DNA of 20,000 bases from an uncultured virus (IMG/VR IMGVR_UViG_3300003410_000004) (taxonomy: Duplodnaviria > Heunggongvirae > Uroviricota > Caudoviricetes): the IMG/VR virus record IMGVR_UViG_3300003410_000004; one strand, 5' to 3'. Every line of letters begins with the position of its first letter. Positions within the stretch are counted from its first letter, which is position 1. Under the pieces are notes generated by a model. The model had not been told where the DNA came from. It worked only from the letters and a program-made list of their open reading frames with translations, and made no database searches. Made by a program: the position numbers and the translations under genes. Positions 283 through 19,405 of this stretch are shown piece by piece.

Positions 283-287
283 TTGCC

Positions 288-325: not shown

Positions 326-344
326 AATTAATTATGGGTATAGT

Positions 345-1855: not shown

Positions 1856-2327
1856 TCCAAAAACTCTTTCAAATAAAGAGCATTATGAATGCGAGGTTGA
1901 AGTATTAGATAATATGATACCTCATGATAATTTAGAACGACTATTTTCTCATATAATTAAAAGTGAAGATATTTCTTTACTTGCAGAAGATATTGCAACT
2001 GCAGTTTGTGTGGAGATTTTTCGACTTAATGAAGAAGATGTAAATTTGAAAAACTTGCAAATTACAAAAGTTTCTAAGGAAGAACCTTTTGTTGCAAGAC
2101 GATCTGGTGTTGAAAAGCAGGATTCCTATGTAACTGTCGTACTCAATAGCATATGGCATAAATGGTGTGGTGGTGAGTTCATCGTATTTGAAAAGGGTGA
2201 AGCAAAAGAGATTATCTCTGCACACCCAGGACGTGTCATAGTATCCTATGGTAACAATTGGATTGATGTTGCAACACCAAAGCACCACGATTCCCCCTTA
2301 TACTTACTACAATTTCAAGTAGTTTAA
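1848..2327 (+). CDS. Degenerate 2OG-Fe(II) oxygenase-fold protein lacking the HxD...H ligands
   Basis: Keeps VEVLDNMIP, W..GGEFIVFE, IISAHPGRVIV, parallel to the upstream gene, but no HxD, distal His or Arg at equivalent positions. Confidence 0.6.
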   Translation: MIDPKTLSNKEHYECEVEVLDNMIPHDNLERLFSHIIKSEDISLLAEDIATAVCVEIFRLNEEDVNLKNLQITKVSKEEPFVARRSGVEKQDSYVTVVLNSIWHKWCGGEFIVFEKGEAKEIISAHPGRVIVSYGNNWIDVATPKHHDSPLYLLQFQVV

Positions 2328-2344
2328 TTTAATCGGAGTAATAA

Positions 2345-4642
2345 ATGACAACCATCGATAATCTTTTCGTGGTGAAGTCTGGTGGACGTAAAGAAGAACT
2401 AGACATCGAGAAAATCCAGAAGATGACACAAGAAGCGTGTGTCGGTTTGTCTGGAGTATCATCATCACAAGTAGAGATGAATTCTGGAATCCAATTTTAT
2501 GATGGAATTCCAACAGAAGATATTCAGAAAATTCTAATCAAGTCAGCGGCAGACCTCATTACACTTGAGAACCCTAACTATCAATACGTTGCCGCTAGAC
2601 TTCTTGCATTCTCTTTGCGTAAGCAGGTGTATGGTCAGTATGACCCAATCCCACTGAAAGAGATTGTTGAGTGGAATATCAAGCGTGGTGTCTATGATAA
2701 AGATTTGTTGTCATATTACGATGATGAAGAGTGGACTAAACTCGATGGTATGATGGATCATGATCGTGATCTGCAGTTCACTTATGCAGGTTTACAGCAG
2801 GTAGTAGACAAGTACCTAGTACAAGATCGTTCCTCTGGAGACATCTACGAAACCCCACAGGTGATGTATATGTTGATCTCTGCGACTATCTTTGCACAGT
2901 ATCCAAGAGATAAGCGTATGCAGTATGTACGCAGATACTACAATGCTATCAGTCAGTTCAAGTTGAACATTCCCACACCAGTAATGGCAGGGGTTCGTAC
3001 ACCAATCCGGCAGTTTGCGTCATGTGTACTCGTTGACGTAGACGACACATTGGATAGTATCTTCCACAGTAACAGTGCTGTTGGATACTACATTGCACAA
3101 CGTGCAGGTATTGGATTGAACGTTGGTCGTATCCGCGCAATCAAATCAAAGATTCGTGGTGGAGAGGTAGAACACACTGGTGTGATTCCATTCCTCAAGA
3201 TGTATGAAGCGACTGTTCGTTCATGTACTCAGAACGGTGTGCGTGGTGGTTCTGCTACAACTCACTTCCCATTCTGGCACAAAGAGATTGAAGATGTAAT
3301 CGTACTGAAGAACAACAAGGGTTCAGAAGACAACCGTGTTCGTAAACTCGACTACTCTATTCAGTTGTCCAAGTTGTTCTATGAGCGTTTCCTGAAGAAT
3401 GAAGATATCTCATTGTTCTCACCTCATGATGTGCCTGGACTCTACGATGCTTTTGGTTACCCAGAGTTCGATGAACTGTACACCAAGTATGAGAATGATC
3501 CTCGTATCGACAAGAAGACTATCAATGCTCGTGAGTTGGGTATTGATATCCTGAAGGAACGTGCAGAAACTGGTCGTATCTACTTAATGAATATGGATCA
3601 TGTTAACTCTCATAGTTCGTTCAAAGACAAGGTGAGTATGTCTAACCTATGTCAAGAGATCACACTACCAACCACACCAATCAGCAATGTTGATGGAACT
3701 GATGGCGAAATTGCACTTTGCATCTTGTCAGCAGTGAACGTAGGTGGTATAAGTAACACTGACGAATTGCAGAATCTTTGTGATCTTGCAGTTCGCGCAC
3801 TAGACGAATTGATTGACTATCAAGGGTATCCTATCCCTGCCGCAGAGAAATCTACGAAAGCGAGACGTTCACTTGGTATTGGTTACATTGGTCTAGCACA
3901 CTACCTAGCGAAAAATAAAGTCAAGTACGATGATCCAGAAGCGTGGAAACTCGTAGATGAACTTACAGAGTCGTTCCAGTACTTCTTGCTCAAAGCGTCT
4001 GTAGACGTAGCGAAAGAGAAAGGTAAGTGTGAGGCGTTTGAAAGAACTAAATATGCAGACGGTATCTTACCAATCGACACATATAAGTCGGATGTTGACG
4101 ATATCGTAACTCCAAACTACAAGCGTGATTGGGAAGAACTACGTTCCGAAATTCAGGAACATGGTTTGCGTCACTCTACACTATCCGCACAGATGCCATC
4201 TGAATCTTCTTCAGTGGTCTGTGGTGAAACAAATGGTATTGAACCCCCTCGTGACTACTTGTCCGTGAAGAAGTCAAAGAAGGGAACACTCAAGCAGATC
4301 GTGCCTGGATACCATACTTTTAAGAATCACTATACATTGCTATGGGATATGAAATCCAATGAGGGTTACATCAAGGTGGTTGCAGTGATGCAGAAATACT
4401 TTGACCAAGCAATCTCTGGTAACTGGTCTTACAATCCAGAGAACTATCCAGATAATGAAGTACCAGTGTCAGTAATGGCACAAGATTTTCTTAATACTTA
4501 CAAATACGGTTGGAAGACATCATACTATCAAAATACTTACGACAGTAAGAAAGATGATGATATCGAGGAGACTCCAACTGAACAACCATTAGAAGCATTA
4601 CCAGACGATGACGGTGAAGTCTGTGATGCCTGTGCAATTTAA
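2345..4642 (+). CDS. nrdA: Ribonucleotide reductase class Ia, alpha subunit
   Basis: N-terminal ATP cone; RQFASC, SNLCQEI, EIALCILS catalytic Cys/Asn/Glu; TSYYQN tyrosine pair; C-terminal CDAC; uninterrupted 765 aa; GGAG RBS. Confidence 0.98.
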   Translation: MTTIDNLFVVKSGGRKEELDIEKIQKMTQEACVGLSGVSSSQVEMNSGIQFYDGIPTEDIQKILIKSAADLITLENPNYQYVAARLLAFSLRKQVYGQYDPIPLKEIVEWNIKRGVYDKDLLSYYDDEEWTKLDGMMDHDRDLQFTYAGLQQVVDKYLVQDRSSGDIYETPQVMYMLISATIFAQYPRDKRMQYVRRYYNAISQFKLNIPTPVMAGVRTPIRQFASCVLVDVDDTLDSIFHSNSAVGYYIAQRAGIGLNVGRIRAIKSKIRGGEVEHTGVIPFLKMYEATVRSCTQNGVRGGSATTHFPFWHKEIEDVIVLKNNKGSEDNRVRKLDYSIQLSKLFYERFLKNEDISLFSPHDVPGLYDAFGYPEFDELYTKYENDPRIDKKTINARELGIDILKERAETGRIYLMNMDHVNSHSSFKDKVSMSNLCQEITLPTTPISNVDGTDGEIALCILSAVNVGGISNTDELQNLCDLAVRALDELIDYQGYPIPAAEKSTKARRSLGIGYIGLAHYLAKNKVKYDDPEAWKLVDELTESFQYFLLKASVDVAKEKGKCEAFERTKYADGILPIDTYKSDVDDIVTPNYKRDWEELRSEIQEHGLRHSTLSAQMPSESSSVVCGETNGIEPPRDYLSVKKSKKGTLKQIVPGYHTFKNHYTLLWDMKSNEGYIKVVAVMQKYFDQAISGNWSYNPENYPDNEVPVSVMAQDFLNTYKYGWKTSYYQNTYDSKKDDDIEETPTEQPLEALPDDDGEVCDACAI

Positions 4643-4654
4643 GGAAGGGACTAA

Positions 4655-5755
4655 GTGACAAGCGTATTCAACAAAAATGTAGTTGACTACAAGAAGCAAC
4701 CGATGTTTTTCGGTGAAGATCAGCAGATGCAAAGATACGATGAATTCAAGTATCCTATCTTTGATAAGTTGACGCAGAAACAGTTGGGATTCTTCTGGCG
4801 TCCAGAAGAGGTGTCGGTGCAGAAAGATCGCTCCGACTACCAACAGTTGCGTCCAGAGCAGAAGCATATCTTTACCTCTAACCTCAAGTATCAGATTCTT
4901 TTGGATTCGGTACAGGGTAGAGGTCCTGCTCTTGCATTCTTACCATTCTGTTCGATTCCAGAGTTGGAAGGTTGTATTCTTGCGTGGGATTTCATGGAGA
5001 CTATCCATAGTCGTTCATATACCTACATGATCAAGAATCTATATCCAAACCCAAGTGATGTGTTCGATCACGTTATCGATGATGAACGTATCATGGAACG
5101 TGCAGACTCGATCACTAAAGCATACGATGACTTCATCGACTATGCGAATCGATACAAACTAACAGGTGAAGGTAACAGCAAGGAACTCAAGCGTAAGTTG
5201 TGGAGAGCATTGGTAACGGTAAACATCCTTGAGGGTATCCGTTTCTATGTGTCATTTGCCTGTACTTTCGCATTCGGTGAGTTGAAAATGATGGAAGGTT
5301 CTGCTAAGATCATTTCTTTCATTGCTCGTGATGAGTCTCAGCACCTTGCTATTACTCAGCACATCATCAAAGCATATCAGAAGAATGAAAATGACGTTGA
5401 GATGCTTGAAGTGATGCAGGAAGAAGAAGAGTGGATGTACCAAGCATATAAAGATGCTGTTGATGAAGAGAAGCGATGGGCAGAGTATCTGTTCAAAGAT
5501 GGATCAATGATTGGTCTGAATGAAAAACTTCTTGGTGATTATGTTGAGTGGATTGCTAACAAGCGTATGCGAGCAATCGGTTTAAAGGAAATATTCGACA
5601 TCAAGCGTAATGATAACCCACTACCTTGGACACAACATTGGTTGAACTCAGGTGGGTTGCAGAATGCACCACAAGAAACTGAGATTGAATCTTACATTAT
5701 TGGTGGTATCAAGCAAGACTTGACTGACGATACACTGAAAGGGTTTTCACTGTAA
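4655..5755 (+). CDS. nrdB: Ribonucleotide reductase class Ia, beta subunit
   Basis: FFWRPEE, LLDSVQ, ETIHSRSY (radical Tyr), LEGIRFY, RDESQH di-iron ligands; APQETEIESY tail; GTG start after AGGAAGG. Confidence 0.98.
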   Translation: MTSVFNKNVVDYKKQPMFFGEDQQMQRYDEFKYPIFDKLTQKQLGFFWRPEEVSVQKDRSDYQQLRPEQKHIFTSNLKYQILLDSVQGRGPALAFLPFCSIPELEGCILAWDFMETIHSRSYTYMIKNLYPNPSDVFDHVIDDERIMERADSITKAYDDFIDYANRYKLTGEGNSKELKRKLWRALVTVNILEGIRFYVSFACTFAFGELKMMEGSAKIISFIARDESQHLAITQHIIKAYQKNENDVEMLEVMQEEEEWMYQAYKDAVDEEKRWAEYLFKDGSMIGLNEKLLGDYVEWIANKRMRAIGLKEIFDIKRNDNPLPWTQHWLNSGGLQNAPQETEIESYIIGGIKQDLTDDTLKGFSL

Positions 5756-5913
5756 TGCCTACTAATAACTATACCTGCAGTGACTGTGAAGCATACTTTG
5801 CAGTCACTCATAAACAAGATGAAGAATTCTTTACTGTCAACATGTGTCCGTTCTGCGGTGCTGAAGTAGAGATGGATGAAGACTTTGAAGAAATTGAGGA
5901 AGATGATGAGTGA
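5755..5913 (+). CDS. Small zinc-ribbon protein (FmdB-like, CxxC...CPxCG) with acidic tail; absent from the ORF track
   Basis: Hand translation MPTNNYTCSDCEAYFAVTHKQDEEFFTVNMCPFCGAEVEMDEDFEEIEEDDE* (52 aa); TAATG overlap with the nrdB stop. Confidence 0.85.
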   Translation: MPTNNYTCSDCEAYFAVTHKQDEEFFTVNMCPFCGAEVEMDEDFEEIEEDDE

Positions 5914-6310
5914 AGTTGATCTAAATGCATATAAAGACTTTGTACAAGCAGTGACCAGTACAGAGTCGAATGAGTTGGATGCGATGGTATCGCGTCTTGG
6001 TGAGTTGAATGAAAAAGTGAATATTCCCCTGCTGATGACAGGTGCTATTGGAATCTCTGCAGAAGGAGGCGAGTTTGTTGAAATCGTTAAGAAGTGTGTT
6101 TTCCAAGGAAAACCTATGGATGATGATACCATATATCACGCAAAGCGAGAACTTGGCGATATTATGTGGTATTGGATTAACTCATGTCGTGCATTGGGTT
6201 TAGACCCCAATGAGGTGATCCAAGGTAACGTTGATAAGTTAATGTCACGTTACCCTGGCGGTCACTTTGATGTGTTCTACTCTGAGAACAGGGTAGAAGG
6301 CGACTTGTAA
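5906..6310 (+). CDS. mazG: MazG-like nucleotide pyrophosphohydrolase (start more likely 5903/5906 than 5876)
   Basis: AEGGEFVEIVKK and RELGDIMWY (ExxE...ExxD), NVDKLMSRYP; GAGGA RBS at 5896-5900. Confidence 0.9.
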   Translation: MSEVDLNAYKDFVQAVTSTESNELDAMVSRLGELNEKVNIPLLMTGAIGISAEGGEFVEIVKKCVFQGKPMDDDTIYHAKRELGDIMWYWINSCRALGLDPNEVIQGNVDKLMSRYPGGHFDVFYSENRVEGDL

Positions 6311-6855
6311 TGTATTATGCAGGGATTGACTACTCCCTAACGTCACCTGCAATCTGTTTAACGCGAGACTTCTCTGAACAGACTACTCGTTACTACTATC
6401 TTACTAATAAGAAGAAATATGACGGTAGGTTCATGGGCGGCACATGTCAGGGAAGTCTCGCGTTTCCCTATTCCTCTCAAGAAGAACGGTTCGACAACAT
6501 ATCGAATTGGGTAATGGCAGTATTGTCAGACTACGATGTAAAGCATGTGTTCATCGAAGATTATGCGATGGGTGCGAAAGGTCGAGTGTTCCATATCGGA
6601 GAAAACACTGGTTTATTGCAACATAAACTGTGGAAAGATAAATACTCATTCACGAAGATTGCTCCAACCGTAGTTAAGAAACATGCTACTGGTAAAGGAA
6701 ACGCAAAGAAAGAACAGATGTACGATGCGTGGATAGACCGATTTGGTGGTAATCTTATAGAAGAGTTTAGTCAGAACAAACTGGACAATCCAGTGACTGA
6801 CATTATCGATGCATTTTATATCGCGGAAACAGGCGCATGTTCATTGGAATCTTAA
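6310..6855 (+). CDS. RuvC-like / RNase H-fold nuclease (Holliday junction resolvase-like)
   Basis: GIDYS (Asp1), VFIEDY (Glu), PTVVKKHATGKGNAKKEQM, DIIDAFYIA (Asp pair) match RuvC motifs. Confidence 0.8.
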   Translation: MYYAGIDYSLTSPAICLTRDFSEQTTRYYYLTNKKKYDGRFMGGTCQGSLAFPYSSQEERFDNISNWVMAVLSDYDVKHVFIEDYAMGAKGRVFHIGENTGLLQHKLWKDKYSFTKIAPTVVKKHATGKGNAKKEQMYDAWIDRFGGNLIEEFSQNKLDNPVTDIIDAFYIAETGACSLES

Positions 6856-7889
6856 TCTTTTTATCAGGTATATTCGTATCTGGTGTCGCGGCATACTACT
6901 CCATCATGGGGTTGATTGCTATCTTTGCTTCAGCACAATTTGCTATCGCAATCATGGGGGTATCCCTTGAGGTTGCTAAATTGGTGACTGCCGCTTGGTT
7001 ACACTACAACTGGAAGAAAGTCAACTTCCTGATGAAAGCATACCTATCGTCTGCAGTCGTTCTATTGGTGTTCATCACCTCTATGGGTATCTTTGGATTC
7101 CTCTCTAAAGCGCATATCGATCAGACGATCAATGCAGGTGACAATACCGTAGTCATTGAGCGCATCGAGCAAAGAATTGCTCGTGAACAGCGTACCATAG
7201 CAGACTCTGAGCAAGTTATCTCTCAGTTAGATCAAGCAGTACAAACCCTGATGGATTATGATCGTGTTAGAGGTAAAGACGGTGCTATCGCAGTAAGACA
7301 GTCGCAGAAAGAAGAACGTGATATGCTTGCAGGTATCATCACCGAAGCGCAAGATGCTATCGATGTACTGGAAGATGAAAAACTTAACCTCAGTAAAGAA
7401 CAGATCGCACTGGAAGCAGAGGTAGGACCTCTCAAGTATATTGCTGAACTGATCTACGGTGATGAAGCGAAAGATCACTTTGATGAAGCAGTACGTTGGG
7501 TAATCATTCTATTGGTGTTCGTATTCGATCCACTTGCGGTGACGATGCTACTTGCCGCTAACGTATCATTTAAAGAGTCTCGTAAGCGTGTAGTACCAGT
7601 GGAGAACATTAGTTCGTTTGAGGAGATTGACGATGATGATATCGAAAGTTTTACCGATTTTCAGAGCAACCAACCACTTGAAGAAACCACCTCGATTAAT
7701 CCAGAAACGGGTGAAGAAGTCAGATTGCGTGAAACCGACTTTGGATCGGAAGGCGTAGTACTCGTGCCAGATATCACAATGACTGAAGATGAAGTTGCAG
7801 AAGCGAAGAAAATCTTCAGAGAAAAATCTGATCCATCCACACTATGGGATAAATTTTGGAAACATAAGCAGGAACGTGATAAGTTATAA
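6837..7889 (+). CDS. Membrane protein: three N-terminal TM helices, long coiled coil, one further TM helix, acidic tail
   Basis: Hydrophobic N-terminus (SIMGLIAIFA, LEVAKLVTAAWL, FITSMGIFGFLSKAH), coiled coil, VGPLKYIAE, IILLVFVFDPLAVTMLLAA. Confidence 0.8.
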   Translation: MFIGILIFLSGIFVSGVAAYYSIMGLIAIFASAQFAIAIMGVSLEVAKLVTAAWLHYNWKKVNFLMKAYLSSAVVLLVFITSMGIFGFLSKAHIDQTINAGDNTVVIERIEQRIAREQRTIADSEQVISQLDQAVQTLMDYDRVRGKDGAIAVRQSQKEERDMLAGIITEAQDAIDVLEDEKLNLSKEQIALEAEVGPLKYIAELIYGDEAKDHFDEAVRWVIILLVFVFDPLAVTMLLAANVSFKESRKRVVPVENISSFEEIDDDDIESFTDFQSNQPLEETTSINPETGEEVRLRETDFGSEGVVLVPDITMTEDEVAEAKKIFREKSDPSTLWDKFWKHKQERDKL

Positions 7890-7921
7890 AAAACTTTGGC
7901 AATATAACAAAATAATCTAAG

Positions 7922-7953
7922 AAGGGGGTTGACAATGTTCGCCCCCTTTTGTA
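7922..7953 (+). terminator. GC hairpin with T-tract (putative intrinsic terminator) enclosing a -35 box
   Basis: AAGGGGG (7922-7928) pairs with CCCCCTT (7942-7948), followed by TTGT. Confidence 0.55.
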
Positions 7954-7957
7954 TTAT
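7929..7957 (+). promoter_or_regulatory. Sigma70-type early promoter
   Basis: TTGACA 7929-7934, 17 bp, TATTAT 7952-7957; AT-rich upstream sequence. Confidence 0.8.
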
Positions 7958-7988
7958 ATGAGGGTAAGTTGATGAGAGAGAAAAAATT

Positions 7989-8270
7989 ATGTTCCGTATT
8001 CCAGATTTCTATGATATTACTCCTAACATGGAGTTCAAACACGCCGTAGATATTGTGACTCGTCATGGTCGTGGTGACTTACTTGAAGGTATGAATGCAC
8101 TGGATCGCGCTTTCACCGAGTTCTGTGAAGGACAGCGAGCATTCTATGCATGTGAGACTGATTATATGGTGTTTGCAGATGAAGATGACTTCTATGATCA
8201 CTATGGTGTTGAGTGTAGTGCATACAACGTTGTGTTTGAGAATATGGGAAAACTTTTTGAAAAAAAGTGA
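7989..8270 (+). CDS. Hypothetical acidic early protein
   Basis: 93-aa ORF behind promoter and GAGAGAG RBS. Confidence 0.75.
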   Translation: MFRIPDFYDITPNMEFKHAVDIVTRHGRGDLLEGMNALDRAFTEFCEGQRAFYACETDYMVFADEDDFYDHYGVECSAYNVVFENMGKLFEKK

Positions 8271-8308
8271 AAAAAAGTGTTGACAAGTGTTGCACAATGC
8301 ACTAAACT
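8260..8308 (+). promoter_or_regulatory. Sigma70-type early promoter with phased A-tract UP element
   Basis: A7 tracts at 8260-8266 and 8270-8276; TTGACA 8280-8285, 17 bp, TAAACT 8303-8308. Confidence 0.8.
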
Positions 8309-8338
8309 GACCTTGTTGAATTGAGAGAGAGATTGATT

Positions 8339-8593
8339 ATGAATTTGAACGATATGATGAAACTTGCAGAGCGTGGACATGAGTTCATTCGTTACATGAA
8401 AGACTTCTACTGTTTAGATGCTGACGGTATCTATGCTGAAGAGTTCCAGTTCACTGAAGAAGAAATCGTTGACGGTATGAACGAATACTTCAAGAGCGAA
8501 CAAGTAATGAAAGATATTATGAAGTACGGTGCTGACACTGTTGATCGTGAAGCAGTCCGTGATATTATTTTGACAATGCGAGGTGAAGTATAA
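8339..8593 (+). CDS. Hypothetical acidic early protein (ATG 8339 preferred over TTG 8321)
   Basis: GAGAGAGAG RBS upstream of ATG 8339; D/E-rich ORF ending DTVDREAVRDII. Confidence 0.75.
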   Translation: MNLNDMMKLAERGHEFIRYMKDFYCLDADGIYAEEFQFTEEEIVDGMNEYFKSEQVMKDIMKYGADTVDREAVRDIILTMRGEV

Positions 8594-8922
8594 TGATGTA
8601 CGTTGTAACTACTACTGCGCTTGAGAACTATGGCGCACACTGTGAGTCTGGTAAGTTTGCTGATGGTAAAGCATACTGGAAGTTTAAGTCTGGTACAGAC
8701 TACATCGTGGAAGGGTTAGACCGTCCACAAGACGCAATGGCGTTTGTCGCCGCTCTTGGTATCGAGAACGGTATCGGTTGGAAAGAGTTCCCTGCAGAGG
8801 TGTTAACCTACGAAGAGTGGGAAAGTCAGTTCAATGACGATGAGTGGGGTCGTGAGTACAAAGAGTTCAAACTTGAGTACATGAAGCGAGTCAACCCATT
8901 TGAGATGATGGAGGCGGCATGA
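8593..8922 (+). CDS. Hypothetical phage protein
   Basis: 109 aa, TAATG coupling, GAGGTG RBS; ENYGAH...YWKFKSG motif. Confidence 0.75.
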   Translation: MMYVVTTTALENYGAHCESGKFADGKAYWKFKSGTDYIVEGLDRPQDAMAFVAALGIENGIGWKEFPAEVLTYEEWESQFNDDEWGREYKEFKLEYMKRVNPFEMMEAA

Positions 8923-9026
8923 TGTTAGATTATATCGCTGTTCGGTTAGCACAAGCATTCTTGCTATGTGCGCTGTTCCTTGGTCTGATTGACTTGGTTT
9001 ATTATTGCCTTGACTTATTGCGGTAA
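8919..9026 (+). CDS. Small single-TM peptide; absent from the ORF track
   Basis: MMLDYIAVRLAQAFLLCALFLGLIDLVYYCLDLLR* (35 aa), GGAGG RBS, ATGA overlap with the upstream stop. Confidence 0.55.
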   Translation: MMLDYIAVRLAQAFLLCALFLGLIDLVYYCLDLLR

Positions 9027-9038
9027 CTAGTCTATACT
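9010..9038 (+). promoter_or_regulatory. Sigma70-type promoter
   Basis: TTGACT 9010-9015, 17 bp, TATACT 9033-9038. Confidence 0.75.
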
Positions 9039-9064
9039 GTGAATAAATGATGAGAGGAGTTGTT

Positions 9065-9280
9065 ATGAATATGAATGACATGTTAGACATCTACAACGAA
9101 ATGAGTCTGGTACGTTCTGTTTTGAACATGCCAGAAGTTCGTTCTATTGCTAACGAAGAAGTCTATCGTATGGTAGATCAACGTTGTGTTAAACTTGCAG
9201 GTGAAATCGCTGAGTATGAAGCGATGGTTGATGAACTTGCAATGCGCTTTGAAGGAGATATTGCGAATGTCAAAGGTTAA
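9065..9280 (+). CDS. Hypothetical helical protein (ATG 9065 preferred)
   Basis: GAGGAG RBS at 9054-9059. Confidence 0.7.
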   Translation: MNMNDMLDIYNEMSLVRSVLNMPEVRSIANEEVYRMVDQRCVKLAGEIAEYEAMVDELAMRFEGDIANVKG

Positions 9281-9464
9281 GTCTGCGTATTGGGATGAGA
9301 TCAATTCTATGGAATATGATCAAGAACCTGACCCAGAGGTTCCAGAAAATCCCTCTTTCGTGTCCTATGTCAATCAATTGATTGATGATTGCCGCCCTCC
9401 TATTGACTATCAGGCATACATAGATTACTGTCGGCAGATGGAGCGTGAAGCGAATGAAGGTTGA
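9267..9464 (+). CDS. Hypothetical acidic protein (ATG 9267 preferred)
   Basis: AGGAG RBS upstream; MSKVKSAYWDE... Confidence 0.65.
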   Translation: MSKVKSAYWDEINSMEYDQEPDPEVPENPSFVSYVNQLIDDCRPPIDYQAYIDYCRQMEREANEG

Positions 9465-9660
9465 AGAACTGTACGGTTTTGTCCGTACCCATTTCGAGGG
9501 TGACAGTTATCACGATATCGTGAGTAATGTGATACTGTCTATGAAGCGTGAGAAACCGTCTCTATATGAGAAGTACGGTTTGTCAATGGTAAAGGATGCA
9601 GTGTACCAAATGCAAAAGAATGGTACATCTGATTTATTGGGAAACTACTATGAAAATTGA
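9454..9660 (+). CDS. Hypothetical protein
   Basis: Tiles between neighbours with short overlaps; GGAG upstream. Confidence 0.6.
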   Translation: MKVEELYGFVRTHFEGDSYHDIVSNVILSMKREKPSLYEKYGLSMVKDAVYQMQKNGTSDLLGNYYEN

Positions 9661-9880
9661 ACTCTATTCAAAAGAGAACTGTAAGTATTGTGAGATGTCT
9701 GCGAGGGCATTAGAGCAAGCAGGATTTGAATTCACCACTAAAAAACTTGATGTGGATTTTGATCGTGAATTTGTAGTGAATAATTTTCCCACTGCAAGAA
9801 CATTTCCTATTGTTGTAATCAATGGGGAGATGCTTGGTGGATTCCAAGAATTATCGTTAATGTTAGAAAGGATTAAGTAA
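9650..9880 (+). CDS. Glutaredoxin (NrdC/NrdH-like RNR reductant)
   Basis: MKIELYSKENCKYC (CxxC), ARTFPIV (cis-Pro), LGGFQEL; start at ATG 9650. Confidence 0.92.
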   Translation: MKIELYSKENCKYCEMSARALEQAGFEFTTKKLDVDFDREFVVNNFPTARTFPIVVINGEMLGGFQELSLMLERIK

Positions 9881-10128
9881 TGGATCGTGAAACTATGGTA
9901 GAGCAGTTGCGTAGCAAGGTTTGTACTGTTACGTTTACTAAAGTGAATGGTGAAGAGCGTGTGATGGAATGTACTCTGATGGATAGTGCTATCCCTGAGT
10001 CTAAGCGTCCTAAAGACGACTCAAATGGTGTACAGCGCACCATCAATGTAATCTCTGCGTTTGATGTTCGCAAAGCAGATTGGCGTTCATTCCGCGTAGA
10101 AAATGTAAAAGAGTTCGTATGTCCATAA
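9880..10128 (+). CDS. WYL_2/DUF2693-like SH3 beta-barrel protein
   Basis: VTFTKVNGEERVMECTL...FDVRKADWRSFRVENV signature, recalled as widespread in T4-like phages. Confidence 0.8.
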   Translation: MDRETMVEQLRSKVCTVTFTKVNGEERVMECTLMDSAIPESKRPKDDSNGVQRTINVISAFDVRKADWRSFRVENVKEFVCP

Positions 10129-10844
10129 AGATTGGTTGGACACCATGTGGTAATGATTGGGATGGTTCGTTATCTGTTAACGAACTGTTCCATGAAACTC
10201 CAGAATTACTGAAGGTGTCTGAGTTAGTTGATGGTGATGCTAAGTATTGTCCATCAATTCGCGAATTTTATAAGAATGTATATGCTGTTCGTATGCCTTG
10301 GACAGTTGTGGTTGCTTTTAGTGAATCGGGAACTCCATATTTCGATTTATCTAAATCACTACATAAAGTCGCAATCGATGAGAATATCCAAGTTGAGAAG
10401 ACTCCTAATGGTGGATATTCTATACAGATAATGCTTAATAACATGTTTGTGTCTGACACCAAAGGTGTTGTGTTGGAAAACATGCCTCCCATTCTTCATC
10501 GGGTGCGAGAAGAAATTCAATACTTAAATGGCGCATTAGATATCTACAGTTGGCAGAGATCACTACATTTTGGGTTCCACATACCTAAACAGGTTGTAGA
10601 TGATTGCGCTTCAAATGAATTATCACTTGAATTTAAGAAAGGAGATGTGGTACAATACTTCCGTGTGAGAACTCCAAACAACGAATCGACTAATCTAGTC
10701 ACTCTTGGAGAGAAGAGTCTTCCCACACTAAGTCGTTATGCAAAAAGATGTGAACTGAGTACAAGGTACTTTAAAGCATTTAGTTTGAAAGAGGTGTTTA
10801 ATCGTGTCGCGAACCGTAGACCGAAAAAGTTCATTAAAGACTGA
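10119..10844 (+). CDS. Hypothetical beta-rich protein (KYCP...Y..RMPW family, possibly DUF6065-related)
   Basis: ATG 10119; KYCPSIREFYKNVYAVRMPW, LDIYSWQR, FKKGDVVQY. Confidence 0.6.
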   Translation: MSIKIGWTPCGNDWDGSLSVNELFHETPELLKVSELVDGDAKYCPSIREFYKNVYAVRMPWTVVVAFSESGTPYFDLSKSLHKVAIDENIQVEKTPNGGYSIQIMLNNMFVSDTKGVVLENMPPILHRVREEIQYLNGALDIYSWQRSLHFGFHIPKQVVDDCASNELSLEFKKGDVVQYFRVRTPNNESTNLVTLGEKSLPTLSRYAKRCELSTRYFKAFSLKEVFNRVANRRPKKFIKD

Positions 10845-11352
10845 TCCTGTCTCAAAGAAGAGACTATCAGATTTAGAGAAACGTCTATTGAATGATTGTG
10901 GTCATTTAGTAGTCAAAGCGAAGTATAAGAGTAATTTACTCAAGACTCGCACAGATGGCACTAAAGTGTACATGTATGAGAAAGTGGGTAAAGACTACAC
11001 CATTTTCGCTGATGGTAACTATGTCATGCGTGATATTACTGATGTAAAGCAGAAGTGGATCATGCCTGACATATCAGCATATACCAAACCAAAGCGTTCT
11101 GATGTTCATCGTAGTATGGAAATCGACATTATGGAATTAATTGAGACTGTCGAGAAACCCACACGAAGAGCAATCATGAAGCAATTTCGCCTTGACAAAG
11201 CGAACAAAGAAGAGTATAGTGAGATTAAGAACCTGTCACCTGCACTGAAGCGTAGGATTGATACTCTGATTGAGGGTAGATTCTTGGAAGAAGAGTTTAT
11301 TCCTAAATATAAGAGAAAGGTTCTCGTAAAGAGCAAATTCAAATATGTGTAA
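10804..11352 (+). CDS. Basic hypothetical protein with a possible C-terminal winged-helix domain
   Basis: GTG start 7 nt after GAGGTG; EIDIMELIE..KPTRRAIMKQF...LKRRIDTLIEGRFLEEE pattern. Confidence 0.6.
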   Translation: MSRTVDRKSSLKTDPVSKKRLSDLEKRLLNDCGHLVVKAKYKSNLLKTRTDGTKVYMYEKVGKDYTIFADGNYVMRDITDVKQKWIMPDISAYTKPKRSDVHRSMEIDIMELIETVEKPTRRAIMKQFRLDKANKEEYSEIKNLSPALKRRIDTLIEGRFLEEEFIPKYKRKVLVKSKFKYV

Positions 11353-11361
11353 GGAGATGCA

Positions 11362-11553
11362 ATGTCGCCAATTGATCACACTATCCTAGCGTTACTCTGG
11401 TCTGCAGGTATCGCAATTATCTTTTACATGAAAGGTAAGAGAGCAGTAGTTGAGAATATCGTAGAGGGTGTCCTCAATGAACTTAAAGAACAGAAATTTA
11501 TCAAAACTAAAATAGTCGATGGTGAGGAAGAATTAATCCGTCATCCAGACTAA
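11362..11553 (+). CDS. Small protein with N-terminal TM helix
   Basis: AAGGAG RBS; ILALLWSAGIAIIFY hydrophobic run. Confidence 0.75.
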   Translation: MSPIDHTILALLWSAGIAIIFYMKGKRAVVENIVEGVLNELKEQKFIKTKIVDGEEELIRHPD

Positions 11554-11568
11554 ACAAAAGGTTATATT

Positions 11569-12429
11569 ATGGCAATCCTAGTTGACTTGAACCAAACGAT
11601 GATATCAAATCTCATGCAGAATCTTCAGGGTTCAAGTGAGATTGATCCAGAACTTGTGCGCCACATGGTGTTCAATTCCCTACGCTCATACAAAAAGAAG
11701 TTCGGAGCAAAGTATGGGGAACTGATCATTTGTTGTGATAACAAGAACTATTGGCGCAAGCAAGAATTCCCTTACTACAAAGCATCACGAAAGAAAGATC
11801 GAGAGAAGTCTGATTACGATTGGTCTGCAATCTTTGAGACTCTGAACAGTATTCGTGATGATATCAAACAACATGCACCATACCTAGTGATCGAGGTACA
11901 ACACGCTGAAGCAGATGATGTTATTGGTGCAATCATTCGCGAAGTCAAAGGTGGTGCATTAGTCACCGACTCAGAGCAATATCTAATTATCTCTGGAGAC
12001 AAAGACTTCCAACAACTGCAACAGTATCCGCAAGTAGACCAATACTCACCGATTATGAGTAAGTTCCTGAAGTGTGCTAACCCTATCGGTTACTTGCGTG
12101 AGCATATTATTAAAGGAGATCGAGGTGACGGTGTACCAAACGCACTCAGCGATGACGATGTATTTGTTAATGGAGGACGCCAAAAACCAGTTAGCAGTAA
12201 AAAACTCGCTGAATGGATCAAAACAGACGAAATCCCCCCCGAAATCAACCCAGATAAATATAGAAGAAATCAACGATTAGTTGATCTGACTCAAATGCCA
12301 GATGAGATATATAATCAGGTAGTTGAGCAATTCCAACAGCGTGATGTGAAGGGTACAAAGCGAACCCTGATGGATTATTTCATCCAAAATCGTATGAGAC
12401 TTTTACTTGAATGCATTGAAGAATTTTAA
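11569..12429 (+). CDS. rnh: T4-type RNase H (5'-3' exonuclease, FEN/PIN fold)
   Basis: ILVDLNQ, CCD..NYWRK..FPYYKASRK, AEADDVIG, ISGDKDFQQL, IIKGDRGDGVPN, RNQRLVDL. Confidence 0.95.
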   Translation: MAILVDLNQTMISNLMQNLQGSSEIDPELVRHMVFNSLRSYKKKFGAKYGELIICCDNKNYWRKQEFPYYKASRKKDREKSDYDWSAIFETLNSIRDDIKQHAPYLVIEVQHAEADDVIGAIIREVKGGALVTDSEQYLIISGDKDFQQLQQYPQVDQYSPIMSKFLKCANPIGYLREHIIKGDRGDGVPNALSDDDVFVNGGRQKPVSSKKLAEWIKTDEIPPEINPDKYRRNQRLVDLTQMPDEIYNQVVEQFQQRDVKGTKRTLMDYFIQNRMRLLLECIEEF

Positions 12430-12446
12430 TCTGGAGAACTTTAATA

Positions 12447-12923
12447 ATGCGCCAAAACATCTATGAATTTTTGAAGAGTGTGAATGACGCCAAATCAAAA
12501 GCGGAGCGAGTTCGTATGTTACAATCATACGATGTACGTCCTGTTAAGAATATCCTCGCAATGAACTTTGATAAGAACATTGAATTTGATCTACCAGAAG
12601 GTGCGCCTCCATTCAAGCGTGACACCAACGAACCTATGGGTATGTCAAATACCGATCTGTTCAATGAGGGTAGACGCCTTGCTCGATGCTTGAAAACTGA
12701 TCCTATTGATAAGTTGCGTAAAGAAGCGATGTTCATCCAGATTCTAGAGGGTTTGCACTATACAGAAGCAGACTTGGTAGTTGCCGCAAAGGATAAGAAC
12801 CTACACTCAATGTTCCCTAACATTGATCGTGAGATTGTCCGTAAAGCGTTCCCTACTCTGCTGACTGATATGAAACCAAATCAGTATACCAAAGACCAAG
12901 AGCGTTTCCAGAAAGATGACTGA
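12447..12923 (+). CDS. Conserved T4-like phage protein (DUF6433-like), typically next to rnh
   Basis: IYEFLKSV..AKSKAERV, NFDKNIEFDLPEGAPPF, LRKEAMFIQILEGLH..EADLVVAAKDK. Confidence 0.75.
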   Translation: MRQNIYEFLKSVNDAKSKAERVRMLQSYDVRPVKNILAMNFDKNIEFDLPEGAPPFKRDTNEPMGMSNTDLFNEGRRLARCLKTDPIDKLRKEAMFIQILEGLHYTEADLVVAAKDKNLHSMFPNIDREIVRKAFPTLLTDMKPNQYTKDQERFQKDD

Positions 12924-13089
12924 ACAAGTTCGTTTCACCGCTACAGTAGAGCATGATCCAGAAACTGGAGAGATGGTTCTACCATTAGAACCTGAAATCC
13001 TAGACCAATTAGGGTGGGGTACTGATGATGTGTTGAAATGGACTGACAACGGTGATGGTACGTTCACTATCACAAAAGTGGATAAATAG
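12916..13089 (+). CDS. AbrB/MazE/SpoVT-like DNA-binding protein; absent from the ORF track
   Basis: MTEQVRFTATVEHDPETGEMVLPLEPEILDQLGWGTDDVLKWTDNGDGTFTITKVDK* (57 aa), swapped-hairpin pattern. Confidence 0.8.
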   Translation: MTEQVRFTATVEHDPETGEMVLPLEPEILDQLGWGTDDVLKWTDNGDGTFTITKVDK

Positions 13090-13093
13090 TGCT

Positions 13094-13447
13094 ATGACTG
13101 AACAAAAACTCACTCCAGAACAAAGTCTTGAGTTCCTCAAGAAACGCACAGTAACGGTTACTCGTGAGAGTGATGGTTCCACTCGTGTGGCAGAAGTGCG
13201 CAGACACCCATCTCGTGGGTTGGAAACCCTTGACGGTACAGAGATTACACTGTATTATGTTGATCAATCTGTACAGGAGGGTGAGTTGAGATTTCCATTG
13301 ACCCTTCAGTATATTGAAGGAGAAACTTGGACATCAGAGATTGATGGTGAATCGTGGAGTACCACGTTTCGTATTCCAGAACCTCTATTAATCAATGAGT
13401 ATATTTCTCGCACAAAGGTTGAAAATTCAAAAAAGGTGAAATACTAA
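13094..13447 (+). CDS. Hypothetical protein (ATG 13094 preferred)
   Basis: Starts 4 nt after the AbrB-like stop; 117 aa. Confidence 0.65.
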   Translation: MTEQKLTPEQSLEFLKKRTVTVTRESDGSTRVAEVRRHPSRGLETLDGTEITLYYVDQSVQEGELRFPLTLQYIEGETWTSEIDGESWSTTFRIPEPLLINEYISRTKVENSKKVKY

Positions 13448-13617
13448 TGGGAAGAACAAGTAAAGAAAGTGAAGAAGAGCGCAAGCGCAGAGAATTCTAC
13501 GAAACTTATGCTAGAGCATTAGAAGCAACTGGTGGAGAAGAAGTGGATTCTCTCACATTTCGCAAGAAAATGCGCGAACTAAACGATAAAAAACCACTTA
13601 ATCCTAAAAATGATTGA
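13447..13617 (+). CDS. Small charged hypothetical protein; absent from the ORF track
   Basis: MGRTSKESEEERKRREFYETYARALEATGGEEVDSLTFRKKMRELNDKKPLNPKND* (56 aa); TAATG coupling, AGGTG RBS. Confidence 0.65.
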   Translation: MGRTSKESEEERKRREFYETYARALEATGGEEVDSLTFRKKMRELNDKKPLNPKND

Positions 13618-13681
13618 TGTATACACAGGACTGCTACTCGTCTTAGCAGTCCTTCTTTATTTCTGCAAAGACGATTTCTAA
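13610..13681 (+). CDS. Possible 23-aa hydrophobic micropeptide
   Basis: MIDVYTGLLLVLAVLLYFCKDDF*; overlaps the upstream stop and spans a hairpin; no clear RBS. Confidence 0.3.
   Translation: MIDVYTGLLLVLAVLLYFCKDDF
13627..13663 (+). terminator. Putative intrinsic terminator
   Basis: Perfect 10-bp stem AGGACTGCTA (13627-13636) / TAGCAGTCCT (13644-13653), 7-nt loop, followed by TCTTTATTTC. Confidence 0.65.
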
Positions 13682-13696
13682 AGAGAACCTTATATT

Positions 13697-13888
13697 ATGA
13701 AAGTCAAAATTGAATTAGACCTCACCCCAGAAGAAGCAAAAGAACTATTCATACCGTCAGATAAGCAATCTGAATTCGGTATGATGTTATATAATGCATA
13801 CACAAAAGCAGTAACTGATACTGTTTGGCAACACGTTGATCCTCATAATTTTACAGGAATGAACAAAAATGCGCGTGAAGATCGGTAA
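13697..13888 (+). CDS. DUF6489-like small protein
   Basis: MKVKIELDLTPEEAKELF.P.D N-terminal signature. Confidence 0.6.
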   Translation: MKVKIELDLTPEEAKELFIPSDKQSEFGMMLYNAYTKAVTDTVWQHVDPHNFTGMNKNAREDR

Positions 13889-14474
13889 ATACCCAAGTCG
13901 ATTTACTTGTAGAATCCACACAAACTATATGAACGAAAAGTATAGTTTTTTGGATTGGACTGCAAAGCAGAATTGGTATGAGAACTTTCTTGAAAAAGTA
14001 GAAGACACTATCCAGTGGGTGTATGACCACACAGTCAACATAATCATTGACAACTTAAATCAGAAGGTCAACGTTCATATTGACCATTGGGATACTTGGT
14101 CAATGGATCATACCTTAGCACCTATCATCCTACCAATGCTCAAGCAATTGAGAGACAACAAACACGGTTCGCCGATGGTTGATGATGAAGATGTTCCAGA
14201 AGAACTGCGCAGTAAATTTGACCCATATTCCAGAACACCAGACTTATTTGCTGATACGATTGAGTATGATATAGCAGAAAAATGTCACGATGCTCTAATC
14301 CATGAGAAGTGGGATTGGGTTATGAATGAGATGATCTATGCGTTTAATTGTAAAGCGAATAAAGATGATGTGTATATGCGCATTGAAGATCAAGATGAAA
14401 TGAGAAAAGAACAAGAACGCATTTCAAATGGATTCCGTCTGTTCGGTAAGTATTACGAAGGGTTGTGGGATTAA
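13869..14474 (+). CDS. Conserved hypothetical phage protein
   Basis: IDHWDTWSMDHTLAPIILPMLKQL, WDWVMNEMIYAF, RISNGFRLFGKYYEGLWD. Confidence 0.8.
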   Translation: MRVKIGKYPSRFTCRIHTNYMNEKYSFLDWTAKQNWYENFLEKVEDTIQWVYDHTVNIIIDNLNQKVNVHIDHWDTWSMDHTLAPIILPMLKQLRDNKHGSPMVDDEDVPEELRSKFDPYSRTPDLFADTIEYDIAEKCHDALIHEKWDWVMNEMIYAFNCKANKDDVYMRIEDQDEMRKEQERISNGFRLFGKYYEGLWD

Positions 14475-14677
14475 TGAAGTGGTTAGACCTCATCACAAAG
14501 ACTCCTGAACAGCGCATGATCGAGAATCTTGAAGCGCAGATGCTAAGTGGTATAGAAACCATGAAGGGTGCGCAAGAAACTATCGAATTTCAATCAAAAA
14601 CCATCGCTGAATTAACACTACATATCCTAGAATTACAACGAAAAATTAAGGAACTTCAGGATGACCAAGATAGTTGA
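14474..14677 (+). CDS. Small coiled-coil protein
   Basis: TAATG coupling at 14472-14476; heptad pattern. Confidence 0.65.
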   Translation: MKWLDLITKTPEQRMIENLEAQMLSGIETMKGAQETIEFQSKTIAELTLHILELQRKIKELQDDQDS

Positions 14678-15035
14678 CTTGTCAACACGCCGTAATAATA
14701 CCCCTGAGACGCCCTCAGACGCCCTACAAGACGCGAACTACGATAAGGTGGATGAACTCCAGTACTCGTGGGGAAAAGTCTTTATGGACATGCTAGATGA
14801 AGCGGAAATCGGAGACAATTCTGAGGAATTCTGGAGAATCTACGCACTATTTGGAGAGACATTCCGCGCACTACTTTGCTATGACCAAAATTTACAACAT
14901 CCATTCCATGATCTCGCTGAGAAAATGATTGATGTTGAGTTTGAGAATGATGATGCAATCATCTATTATAAAGATGTACACCTATATGTGAGTGAGTTCC
15001 CCCTAATCGATGAAGACGGCAATACATCTATTTGA
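14661..15035 (+). CDS. Hypothetical acidic protein
   Basis: 124 aa, AAGGA RBS. Confidence 0.7.
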   Translation: MTKIVDLSTRRNNTPETPSDALQDANYDKVDELQYSWGKVFMDMLDEAEIGDNSEEFWRIYALFGETFRALLCYDQNLQHPFHDLAEKMIDVEFENDDAIIYYKDVHLYVSEFPLIDEDGNTSI

Positions 15036-15627
15036 TCTCAATGACACACTATGTGAGTATTGGGAGAAAGAATTACATGATGACACCAAAGAGTGGTTGA
15101 TCAACTTCTCTAAAAAGCATCCAATCAGCATAATCTCAGGGGGTTCTGTACAGAGTATCCTTACTAAGATAGGTGATGTGAAGCATCACTGTGGTATGGT
15201 TCTTGGATACTCTGGTATGGAAGTCATGACTGCTAATGACTACGTTGCACCAAAGCAGATTGAGTTTCCTAACGATCTCATTGAGTATATTCTTGACTGG
15301 CACGAAGGTGTTGAGGTTACAGAGAATACTACTACCCTCTATATCCCCAAAATCAAAGGGGAAACACGCAAGAAACTGGTGAAAGACCTAAATAACGATT
15401 TCCCAGAGTTCGATACCGTCTACGACAACAGAGACTACGGTATCACTGTTCAAGCATTCAATAAGTCTTTCGCACTACCCTACTTCAAGACTCGCGTGGT
15501 GTTTTACACTGACGGTACAAATCGATACACATTCGATAACCAAGCGTGTAAAGCGTTCAAGAGAGCAGGACATACGATAGTTCCTGTCAATGAACCTTGC
15601 GACTTCATTAGAAAAATACAATCATAA
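15010..15627 (+). CDS. Degenerate HAD-superfamily (phosphomannomutase-like, class IIB) protein
   Basis: IHLFDLNDTL (motif I, DxN), ISIISGG (II), FNKSFAL (III Lys), VFYTDG....D (IV), ending VPVNEPCD. Confidence 0.55.
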   Translation: MKTAIHLFDLNDTLCEYWEKELHDDTKEWLINFSKKHPISIISGGSVQSILTKIGDVKHHCGMVLGYSGMEVMTANDYVAPKQIEFPNDLIEYILDWHEGVEVTENTTTLYIPKIKGETRKKLVKDLNNDFPEFDTVYDNRDYGITVQAFNKSFALPYFKTRVVFYTDGTNRYTFDNQACKAFKRAGHTIVPVNEPCDFIRKIQS

Positions 15628-15632
15628 AAGTG

Positions 15633-15660
15633 TTGACCTTTCCGATCATTGTGGTATTAT
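15633..15660 (+). promoter_or_regulatory. Sigma70-type promoter with extended -10
   Basis: AAAAGTG-TTGACC 15633-15638, 16 bp, TGG-TATTAT 15655-15660. Confidence 0.65.
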
Positions 15661-15686
15661 TACTATGTTGATTGAGAGAGGTTTTT

Positions 15687-15788
15687 ATGGAATACACACA
15701 AAATTACTACGATGTGATTCTTCTTGGTGGCGTATTGGTCGCCGCTGTTGTTTATCTTGCAATGAAAGGTAATTTGAGAAAGTGGTAA
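15687..15788 (+). CDS. Small single-TM peptide; absent from the ORF track
   Basis: MEYTQNYYDVILLGGVLVAAVVYLAMKGNLRKW* (33 aa), GAGAGG RBS, first ORF after the promoter. Confidence 0.65.
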   Translation: MEYTQNYYDVILLGGVLVAAVVYLAMKGNLRKW

Positions 15789-15925
15789 AATTGCACACCA
15801 AGACAATGATTATATGGGATGACTTGTTCGTCCAGTTATACGTTGGTGGTCAAGATAAGTGGAACATTCTTCCTGAGTGGGAGAATCGCGTCAAGAAGAT
15901 GAAGAAATATAAAGGTGAATTATGA
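15782..15925 (+). CDS. Small hypothetical protein (start GTG 15782 or ATG 15806)
   Basis: ...MIIWDDLFVQLYVGGQDKWNILPEWENRVKKMKKYKGEL*; ATGA overlap with the next gene. Confidence 0.45.
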   Translation: MVKLHTKTMIIWDDLFVQLYVGGQDKWNILPEWENRVKKMKKYKGEL

Positions 15926-16125
15926 TTGATATGCTGAAAGAGATCACTGGTACAGTTGGTGAATTCCGTTACCCTGAGAATGTCTACTATGTGCGTGGTG
16001 ATCGTCTAGTAGCATTCTACCCTGAAGGTAACCCTGATGGGTTTGTCATCTATAAGAAACCTATGCGTTTCAGTAAAAAAGGTCGTAAGTTTGAAACACT
16101 CGCGAAAGGATTAAAATCATTATGA
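15922..16125 (+). CDS. Hypothetical protein
   Basis: AGGTG RBS; LKEIT...YKKPMRFSKKGRKF. Confidence 0.7.
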   Translation: MIDMLKEITGTVGEFRYPENVYYVRGDRLVAFYPEGNPDGFVIYKKPMRFSKKGRKFETLAKGLKSL

Positions 16126-16526
16126 CAGAGAACACGCCACTAGAAGAACAGTTGGATGAATCAACTCAACAGCGATATAAGAACTCTGCTATGTCCAAAG
16201 CAGGTAAACTTGCGATGGAACTTGCACAAGAGCGTAAGCGTCTACGTCAAGAACTAGAAGAACTCCAAGCAGAAGCGGATGATCTGCGTCCTACTACGCC
16301 TACTGGTACAGTCGATTGGTACGTTAAGTGGGCGGCAATGTTCCTAACAGTGTTTGGGGTGTTCTTCATGTCTGCTAACCAGATTATGTTTGGTCAGATT
16401 GCATACATCATCAGTTCAGTTGGTTGGGTGTTTGTTGGTATGCAGTGGTCAGACAGAGCGATTATGATTGGTAGTGCGATTACAGGTACTGCAGTTGCTA
16501 TGAATTTGATGGGTAGTTTGGTATGA
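16122..16526 (+). CDS. Coiled coil fused to a DUF6552-like three-helix membrane domain
   Basis: QERKRLRQELEELQ coil, then DWYVKW, GWVFVGMQWSDRAIM TM segments. Confidence 0.65.
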   Translation: MTENTPLEEQLDESTQQRYKNSAMSKAGKLAMELAQERKRLRQELEELQAEADDLRPTTPTGTVDWYVKWAAMFLTVFGVFFMSANQIMFGQIAYIISSVGWVFVGMQWSDRAIMIGSAITGTAVAMNLMGSLV

Positions 16527-16708
16527 ACGTAGAAGTTCCTAACTCTAAGATACCCACAAAGGTTTTGATTGATGAATTATATGATCGTGTAGATGATCAG
16601 TTGTACGCACCAGAAAAGCGAGCAGACGACTATATGGAATGTCTCAGCAATGGACAGAAAGAACTCCTACATGATTTACTAGAAGCGATAAGGAAGAGAT
16701 GCGGATGA
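16523..16708 (+). CDS. Hypothetical protein
   Basis: ATGA overlap; 61 aa. Confidence 0.6.
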   Translation: MNVEVPNSKIPTKVLIDELYDRVDDQLYAPEKRADDYMECLSNGQKELLHDLLEAIRKRCG

Positions 16709-16887
16709 AATGTATAAATTTAATTATTGCCATACTTGTGTCACTGAATGTGATAGGATATGCAAGTTATTTAAGAATCACTGAAGGTAGTGCAGGTTTT
16801 CTGTCTACTCTTGGAGCAATCGTTGCTATGTTCATTATCGGTGTTTCTGTGACTGAATTTGGTAGAATGACTAGGAGATCAAGATGA
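16699..16887 (+). CDS. Small two-TM membrane protein
   Basis: INLIIAILVSLNVIGY and FLSTLGAIVAMFIIGVSV; basic tail. Confidence 0.6.
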   Translation: MRMKCINLIIAILVSLNVIGYASYLRITEGSAGFLSTLGAIVAMFIIGVSVTEFGRMTRRSR

Positions 16888-17261
16888 GTAAATTTGTAAT
16901 GGTTGATACCATATCAATGTTCCGTATGCGGTATGTGGTAGAAGTTCCAGATGATGTGGGTGAAGAGATGTACTTNAAAGATGGCACACGATCATTCCCC
17001 TGCACACCAGAAGAGTATGCGAAAGATACCGTAACATGTGGAGATGTGCGTGAGTTCTCACAGGAACATCTCGATGAGGTGATTTCATCTTGTCGTGAGG
17101 TGACCAAGGAAGAAGCAGTCGCACAATGGCGTCAGGATAATAGTTCATTTAGTTCTTGGAGTGATGATTTTATCACAAAATCAGCGATTACTGAGGTTGA
17201 TTTCAGTATAAATGAATATTATGAAGAAGAAGAGCGCAGATGGCACCAAAGCGGTGAATAA
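16884..17261 (+). CDS. Hypothetical phage protein
   Basis: AGGAG RBS; VMVDTISMFRMRYVVEV, EFSQEHLDEVI. Confidence 0.75.
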   Translation: MSKFVMVDTISMFRMRYVVEVPDDVGEEMYXKDGTRSFPCTPEEYAKDTVTCGDVREFSQEHLDEVISSCREVTKEEAVAQWRQDNSSFSSWSDDFITKSAITEVDFSINEYYEEEERRWHQSGE

Positions 17262-17263
17262 AA

Positions 17264-18233: not shown

Positions 18234-18430
18234 CTAATTTTAGTGAATTGTTTGATGAGTTTCTTGACAACCATGCAGAAAAACTTGTTGTAGAGGAACT
18301 GAAAACCTACTACAAACTGACAGATGTAAATGATGAATCTGGTATCCGATGGGCGATTGACCGTGTGTTAAAAGACTACATGACAACCCAAGACTATGTT
18401 GAGTGGCGAAGGGAGAATGGTAAAGTATGA
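18230..18430 (+). CDS. Hypothetical protein
   Basis: GGAG RBS, ATGA overlaps. Confidence 0.7.
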   Translation: MTNFSELFDEFLDNHAEKLVVEELKTYYKLTDVNDESGIRWAIDRVLKDYMTTQDYVEWRRENGKV

Positions 18431-19396: not shown

Positions 19397-19405
19397 GGTA
19401 ATATC

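Follow-up and report, generated by a model that had tools for sequence, protein, structure and literature searches.

Complete absence of GCAGC and GCTGC from a T4-like virus contig and recoding of its alanine–alanine codon pairs

The loss of short recognition words from phage genomes has been surveyed by Rusinov et al. (2018), whose account gives elimination almost only for sites that belong to orthodox type II restriction systems and in non-temperate phages, and places full or nearly full elimination in roughly every tenth viral genome (PMC6286503). The word GCWGC (GCAGC or GCTGC) is the site of TseI (PMC3643589) and of LmoJ2, and LmoJ2 sites, according to work cited in PMC10059834, are less frequent in the lytic Listeria phages A511 and P100. 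The present study concerns the same word in a 20,000-nucleotide stretch of an uncultured virus of the class Caudoviricetes (IMG/VR record IMGVR_UViG_3300003410_000004), referred to below as the window, which constitutes the final 20 kb of the 74,049-base virus contig G000 (G000:C1:54050-74049) and has a G+C content of 40%. GCWGC is missing from the whole contig, and the avoidance is genuine; restriction by the host is considered below as its probable cause.

Loss of GCWGC and coding of alanine–alanine pairs

The counts of GCAGC and GCTGC are zero both in the window and across the contig, and in neither is any 5-mer more depleted than GCAGC. A preliminary description, made from the letters of the window, had reported this absence against about 19 expected sites; the absence is borne out, and the expectation agrees with that from base composition (19.1), stricter null models giving 12–13. 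A maximal-order Markov model still expects 13.1 sites in the window, so the deficit is not explained by lower-order k-mers. Synonymous codon swaps that leave every protein and the codon usage intact and keep RGCY excluded give 12.2 ± 2.5 sites for the window (minimum 5 in 100 samples) and 53.2 ± 4.2 for the contig (minimum 43 in 60 samples), the latter comprising, on the coding strand, 32 GCAGC and 21 GCTGC. The contig expectation is nearly unchanged (52.4 ± 3.9) when 79 other depleted words are forbidden as well. Ala-Ala pairs account for 40 of these 52 expected sites and the two other frames for 12.3, and none is observed in any frame; zero against 12.3 indicates selection at the DNA level and excludes codon-pair bias. 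The comparison with GCSGC proposed in the preliminary description shows an excess of the latter on the contig (57 against 20.9), which rules out GCNGC or GCDGC as the real target. The one-base neighbours GCWGD and HCWGC are spared (752 against 628 expected), and the deamination products GTWGC and GCWAC are at expectation (231 against 220 ± 10).

The open reading frame (ORF) set of G000 was made for the plus strand with a simple caller and may contain a few false ORFs. In this set all 54 Ala-Ala pairs begin with GCC or GCG, though these two codons make up only 339 of the 1383 alanine codons. The 11 pairs of the window named in the preliminary description are all present, each beginning with GCC or GCG (Table 1). 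Its statement that GCA and GCT are the common alanine codons holds for the two taken together (242 of 329 in the window), but GCT (70) does not exceed GCG (73), the other counts being 172 for GCA and 14 for GCC. The word "recoded" is supported by GCA or GCT at the same sites in non-avoiding relatives: of 405 aligned cases in which an Ala-Ala pair is conserved with G000, 344 open with GCA or GCT, in a comparison of loci of at least 5 kb that include many near-duplicates. The corresponding figure for avoiding loci (147 of 147 with GCC or GCG first) is circular. Other phages use GCW-GCN freely. The dipeptide itself is also rarer, with a within-protein ratio of observed to expected Ala-Ala of 0.60 in G000, 0.72–0.82 in six other avoiders and 0.98–1.33 in five non-avoiders; RGCY avoidance may contribute part of the deficit in G000, and a deficit is also present in three contigs that keep AGCC/GGCT.

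The substitution extends to a transfer-messenger RNA (tmRNA) gene of the contig, situated outside the window between hsp20 and the gene downstream of the clamp loader (L002:15912-16249; G000 34912-35249). It is a permuted two-piece tmRNA (Rfam tmRNA_permuted 94.8 bits, alpha_tmRNA 52.1 bits) with the tag ANDSTYALAA. The final two tag codons are GCG GCA in four loci of this phage population and GCW-GCN in 35 of 35 others, and the Rfam consensus at this place also reads GCUGC. A permuted tmRNA was also found at L207:13264-13660, its intervening segment being about 180 bases longer than that of the close relative L206.

Table 1. Alanine–alanine pairs and related features of the window (position 1 is the first base of the window)
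Feature	Position	Strand	Remark
Whole window, GCWGC-free	1..20000		belongs to T4-like contig GCWGC-free throughout
nrdA	2345..4642	+	three Ala-Ala pairs conserved in relatives
nrdA SAAD, GCG GCA	2546..2551	+	GCW first in 15/16 non-avoiding relatives
nrdA VAAR, GCC GCT	2591..2596	+	GCW first in 42/56 non-avoiding relatives
nrdA PAAE, GCC GCA	3839..3844	+	GCW first in 81/89 non-avoiding relatives
VAAY of 350-aa membrane protein, GCG GCA	6888..6893	+	ORF codon reading
TAAW, membrane protein, GCC GCT	6990..6995	+	ORF codon reading
LAAN, membrane protein, GCC GCT	7554..7559	+	ORF codon reading
VAAL, GCC GCT	8749..8754	+	ORF codon reading
MEAA, C-terminal, GCG GCA	8914..8919	+	ORF codon reading
VAAK, GCC GCA	12783..12788	+	ORF codon reading
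VAAV, 33-aa ORF 15687-15788, GCC GCT	15741..15746	+	ORF codon reading
WAAM, GCG GCA	16332..16337	+	ORF codon reading

Separation from RGCY and the other lost words

The contig carries T4-like genes for terminase, sheath, portal, gp23, UvsW, gp43, gp41, primase, NrdA and NrdB. In NrdA the closest isolates, with only 70–73% identity, are marine cyanophages and the Pelagibacter phage HTVC008M, so G000 lacks a close cultured relative; these relatives indicate that it is probably marine. An NrdB tree was built by a quick rather than a careful method. Among the 92 G000 proteins scanned, no photosystem gene and no integrase domain were found; the contig is a fragment, its head, tail and replication genes being T4-like, and a search for an extension beyond the end of the window gave no matches.

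The preliminary description had proposed a second restriction pressure, independent of that on RGCY. Three contigs representing a second, larger phage lineage (G313, G314 and G316; their 42–56 kb correspond to a CheckV completeness of 16–22%) contain no GCWGC, against 53, 44 and 42 expected sites, and have normal AGCC/GGCT; loci L232, L225 and L237 likewise retain most AGCT. The reverse case is represented by L160 (RGCY 0 against 44, GCWGC 14 against 10) and by four overlapping loci (L325, L327, L328 and L339) that lack RGCY and keep GCWGC. Since each word set is lost alone in some phages, the two pressures are separable, and on G000 itself the variants free of RGCY are also missing (GCAGCA 0 against 27, GCAGCG 0 against 13). 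Inside the clade of G000 the two losses nearly always coincide: a gp41 match is present in 33 loci, of which 29 have no GCWGC and at most one RGCY, and four keep both. One of the 29 belongs to the population of G000, and the others are 60–65% identical in gp41. The independence thus survives the RGCY ban, the ban on 79 words and the separate losses; the ordinal "second" does not stand, GCWGC being one of roughly twenty lost words, and restriction as the cause is the best inference.

Palindromes, some of them degenerate, make up most of the roughly twenty words lost together with GCWGC. G000 is without or nearly without RGCY, CCGG, CCAGC, CGWCG, RGATCY, GWGCWC, YACGTR, YTCGAR, GAGACC, CTTAAG, GGTACC, CCATGG and more. 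The related contigs G001, G311 and G312 share a core of RGCY, GCWGC, CGWCG, RGATCY and GWGCWC, and also YACGTR and CTTAAG, the remainder being different; this pattern is as expected if the phages met stable host enzymes plus variable ones. The five core words are common to a deeply diverged clade, the helicases of which are only about 62% identical. CCAGC is depleted in G000 (4 against 55) and not in its relatives, and is therefore a separate word; its retention there rules out a fusion of GCWGC and CCAGC into SCAGC. CCGG, YTCGAR and GAGACC are likewise lost in G000 and not in the sister contigs, and GATC and GANTC are strongly depleted in the sisters and far less so in G000; such differences may mark a different host. 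The RGCY word surviving most in G001 and G311 is GGCC.

The purging of many words is common in the group, being found also in Melnitz, HTVC008M and G320, yet these keep GCWGC. Among T4-like loci selected by gp23, three of 78 avoid GCWGC. With avoidance set at no more than one quarter of the expectation, 124 of 425 loci of at least 5 kb are avoiders, and these contain 11 distinct surviving sites.

Host restriction as the probable cause

A host type II endonuclease that cuts unmethylated GCWGC, selection having erased every site, is in our judgement the likeliest cause, and a probable one. The loss and the substitutions are direct observations, for which we infer the endonuclease as the agent. 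The hosts would possess a type II restriction endonuclease that recognises GCWGC (GCAGC read on either strand), which would cut incoming phage DNA with unmethylated sites; selection would then clear all sites and leave Ala-Ala encoded only as GCS-GCN. The enzyme would have persisted for a long time in the host lineage.

BbvI-type IIS enzymes recognise the asymmetric word GCAGC. Over both strands GCWGC describes the same set of sites as GCAGC, and a palindromic enzyme is therefore indistinguishable from a type IIS one by sequence. The assignment of the word to TseI/ApeKI in the preliminary description fits the data and is not unique; a BbvI-type enzyme suits them as well as TseI, ApeKI or LmoJ2.

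A possible lead to the hosts comes from msmA, the gene for the alpha subunit of methanesulfonate monooxygenase, found in one member of each avoiding lineage (L301:10734-11795 and L305:3919-4971; 86% mutual identity, with Pfam detecting the catalytic domain only) and absent from the G000 fragment. Approximately 690 viral stretches bear an msmA relative; the sole one in an isolate phage is that of the SAR116 phage HMO-2011 (72%), for which an msmA-type gene has been described (PMC4928673, PMC4433239). Cellular counterparts were found in one of 401 alphaproteobacterial genomes at E ≤ 1e-100 and, phylum-wide, in two of 401 at 1e-60; in one family, one of nine genomes carries the gene, the best identity being 72–73%. 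The presence of msmA in relatives of G000 suggests, as a lead only, that the hosts may be marine alphaproteobacteria.

The ANDSTYA tag was rejected as a host pointer: all 23 metagenome loci bearing it looked viral, and two matches in 301 alphaproteobacterial genomes were due to chance, lying inside protein genes. Buchholz et al. report that phage two-piece tmRNAs can derive from a different host class (PMC9004378), and on this account the tag was abandoned as a host marker. The second avoiding lineage has the tmRNA tag ANDNYAPEMALAA, alphaproteobacterial in type, with no close cellular match to its tmRNA among 401 genomes. A route through T4-like contigs in GTDB gave 32 loci with gp23 identities of 52–71%, none from this clade. 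The phage also encodes a rubredoxin (L001:13284-13448), flanked by uvsY and uvsW, whose homologues gave no useful host name.

Several observations weigh against host restriction. Nine of the 11 surviving sites read GGCAGC, against 11–19% expected from shuffles (L164, L240, L241, L299, L300, L266, L355, L360 and L361), and plain restriction alone does not account for the preceding G; G000 itself has GGCAGC 0 against 7 and AGCC/GGCT 0 against 150. Near-duplicates are numerous among the related loci, which do not constitute independent samples. Neither a host genome nor a GCWGC enzyme was found in the searches made. GCWGC methylation was reported by Hiraoka et al. (2022) in a single marine Chloroflexi genome (PMC8919816), and a GCWGC methyltransferase of Lake Biwa Chloroflexi has no restriction partner in its listing (PMC6329791), so that, on the latter account, methylation of the word need not imply restriction. 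Among msmA-bearing viral loci, a sample that the query and duplicates have skewed, 32 of 76 avoid GCWGC and 44 keep it; HMO-2011 also keeps it (98 against 131 in 50 of 55 kb), which makes the host lead weak. In the same part of HMO-2011 (L424, 1-50000) GATC (0 against 157), CGWCG (0 against 23) and GWGCWC (0 against 36) are purged, and so is RGATCY.

Other explanations and comparison with known systems

Methyl-directed restriction, in which a host or phage methyltransferase would modify GCWGC and a modification-dependent nuclease (type IIM or IV) would cut it, the sites being shed so as to escape methylation, is very unlikely. A phage gene predicted to encode a 528-aa amino-methyltransferase-like protein, with 67% identity in G311, the placing of GCWGC among type IIM sites by Rusinov et al. 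(PMC6286503) and the existence of orphan GCWGC methyltransferases (PMC6329791) are consistent with it. However, with 3082 matches the methyltransferase family extends very widely and is not tied to avoiders, Rusinov et al. give only weak avoidance for modification-dependent enzymes, and no modification-dependent nuclease domain was found among the 92 proteins of G000 and 51 proteins of selected relatives. The 528-aa gene (L002:5343-6926; G000 24343-25929) has as neighbours genes for a pyridoxal-phosphate-enzyme-like protein, an Asp/Arg hydroxylase-like protein, a deoxycytidine monophosphate deaminase and a second methyltransferase, and the predicted functions make it possible that the cluster is a DNA modification locus.

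Self-avoidance, with a sequence-specific nuclease of the phage degrading host DNA and the genome protected by lacking the site, appears most improbable. The candidate is a clade-conserved 398-aa gene after gp41 (L003:6417-7610; G000 42417-43613), the product of which shows ESM Atlas feature matches of 0.93–0.94 to clusters with RE_HaeIII, Endonuc-MspI or R-HINP1I on 10–19% of members and has conserved residues E..D..SxK, resembling PD-(D/E)XK. GCWGC is missing from 30 of 80 homologue loci, and each of these 30 carries a full-length homologue (43–100% identity). This association is, however, confounded with descent, and GCWGC is retained in 45 of 75 homologue loci, homologues of 45–48% (L468, L469) and 39–41% identity (L473–L478) lying in such loci. 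The distant homologue loci have lost no 4-mer in common, and in a crude scan for motifs one of 51 of them showed a methyltransferase-like ORF. Searches of Pfam, PADLOC and PDB gave no match for the protein; no homologue occurs in the fragments that represent the second avoiding lineage, and among the genes common to both avoiding lineages and missing from non-avoiders there is no nuclease. A single enzyme also cannot account for roughly twenty words. There is a slender chance, judged from predicted features, that the 398-aa product might destroy host DNA at GCWGC or RGCY, the site being erased rather than methylated, as phage-run restriction without its modification half; a phage nuclease as the cause, if true, would be a new means of discriminating self from host DNA.

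Mutational decay, in which host methylation of GCWGC would drive C-to-T loss and no restriction would be involved, is exceedingly improbable: aquatic bacteria with GCWGC methyltransferases and no listed endonuclease are described in PMC6329791, but the loss is total rather than partial, and the replacement spectrum largely refutes the idea, the deamination products not being in excess and GCSGC, which requires a W-to-S change, being so. Codon-pair bias against GCA or GCT before alanine, or a by-product of RGCY or shorter-word bias, can practically be dismissed: roughly three in four expected sites lie on Ala-Ala pairs and the clade loses RGCY too, but the empty other frames already refute it, as do the deficit under both word bans, the missing GCAGCA and GCAGCG, and the phages that use GCW-GCN freely or lose one set only.

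If host restriction is indeed the cause, its pressure has altered the tag of a phage tmRNA and even the frequency of a dipeptide, and some abundant uncultured aquatic bacteria are predicted to carry a stable GCWGC/GCAGC endonuclease, faced by two phage lineages distantly related to each other. The set of lost words would serve as a fingerprint that can be matched to long-read methylomes for host finding.

A search of the open-access literature at the level of titles and abstracts found nothing on GCWGC loss in this marine clade. The marine Myoviridae-like genomes of Hiraoka et al. (2022), as presented in PMC8919816, keep RGCY and methylate it along with other motifs, whereas the clade of G000 removes it. 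The enzymes of the TseI, ApeKI and BbvI types have recognition sites that are exactly the missing word set. The case of Listeria phages A511 and P100 (PMC10059834) is similar in the word, in the proposed cause and in concerning large lytic myoviruses; in the account given there, however, the phages have fewer of the sites and also fewer GCNGC, and their host system is known, whereas G000 lacks GCWGC and has GCSGC in excess. The avoidance described by Rusinov et al. (PMC6286503) is alike in that short, mostly palindromic words are eliminated synonymously in a T4-like double-stranded DNA phage; G000 differs in the joint purging of about twenty words and in an effect at the protein level, Ala-Ala dipeptides being reduced to 0.60 of expectation. 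The strategy of avoidance is thus already known, and G000 is an unusually clean added example of it.

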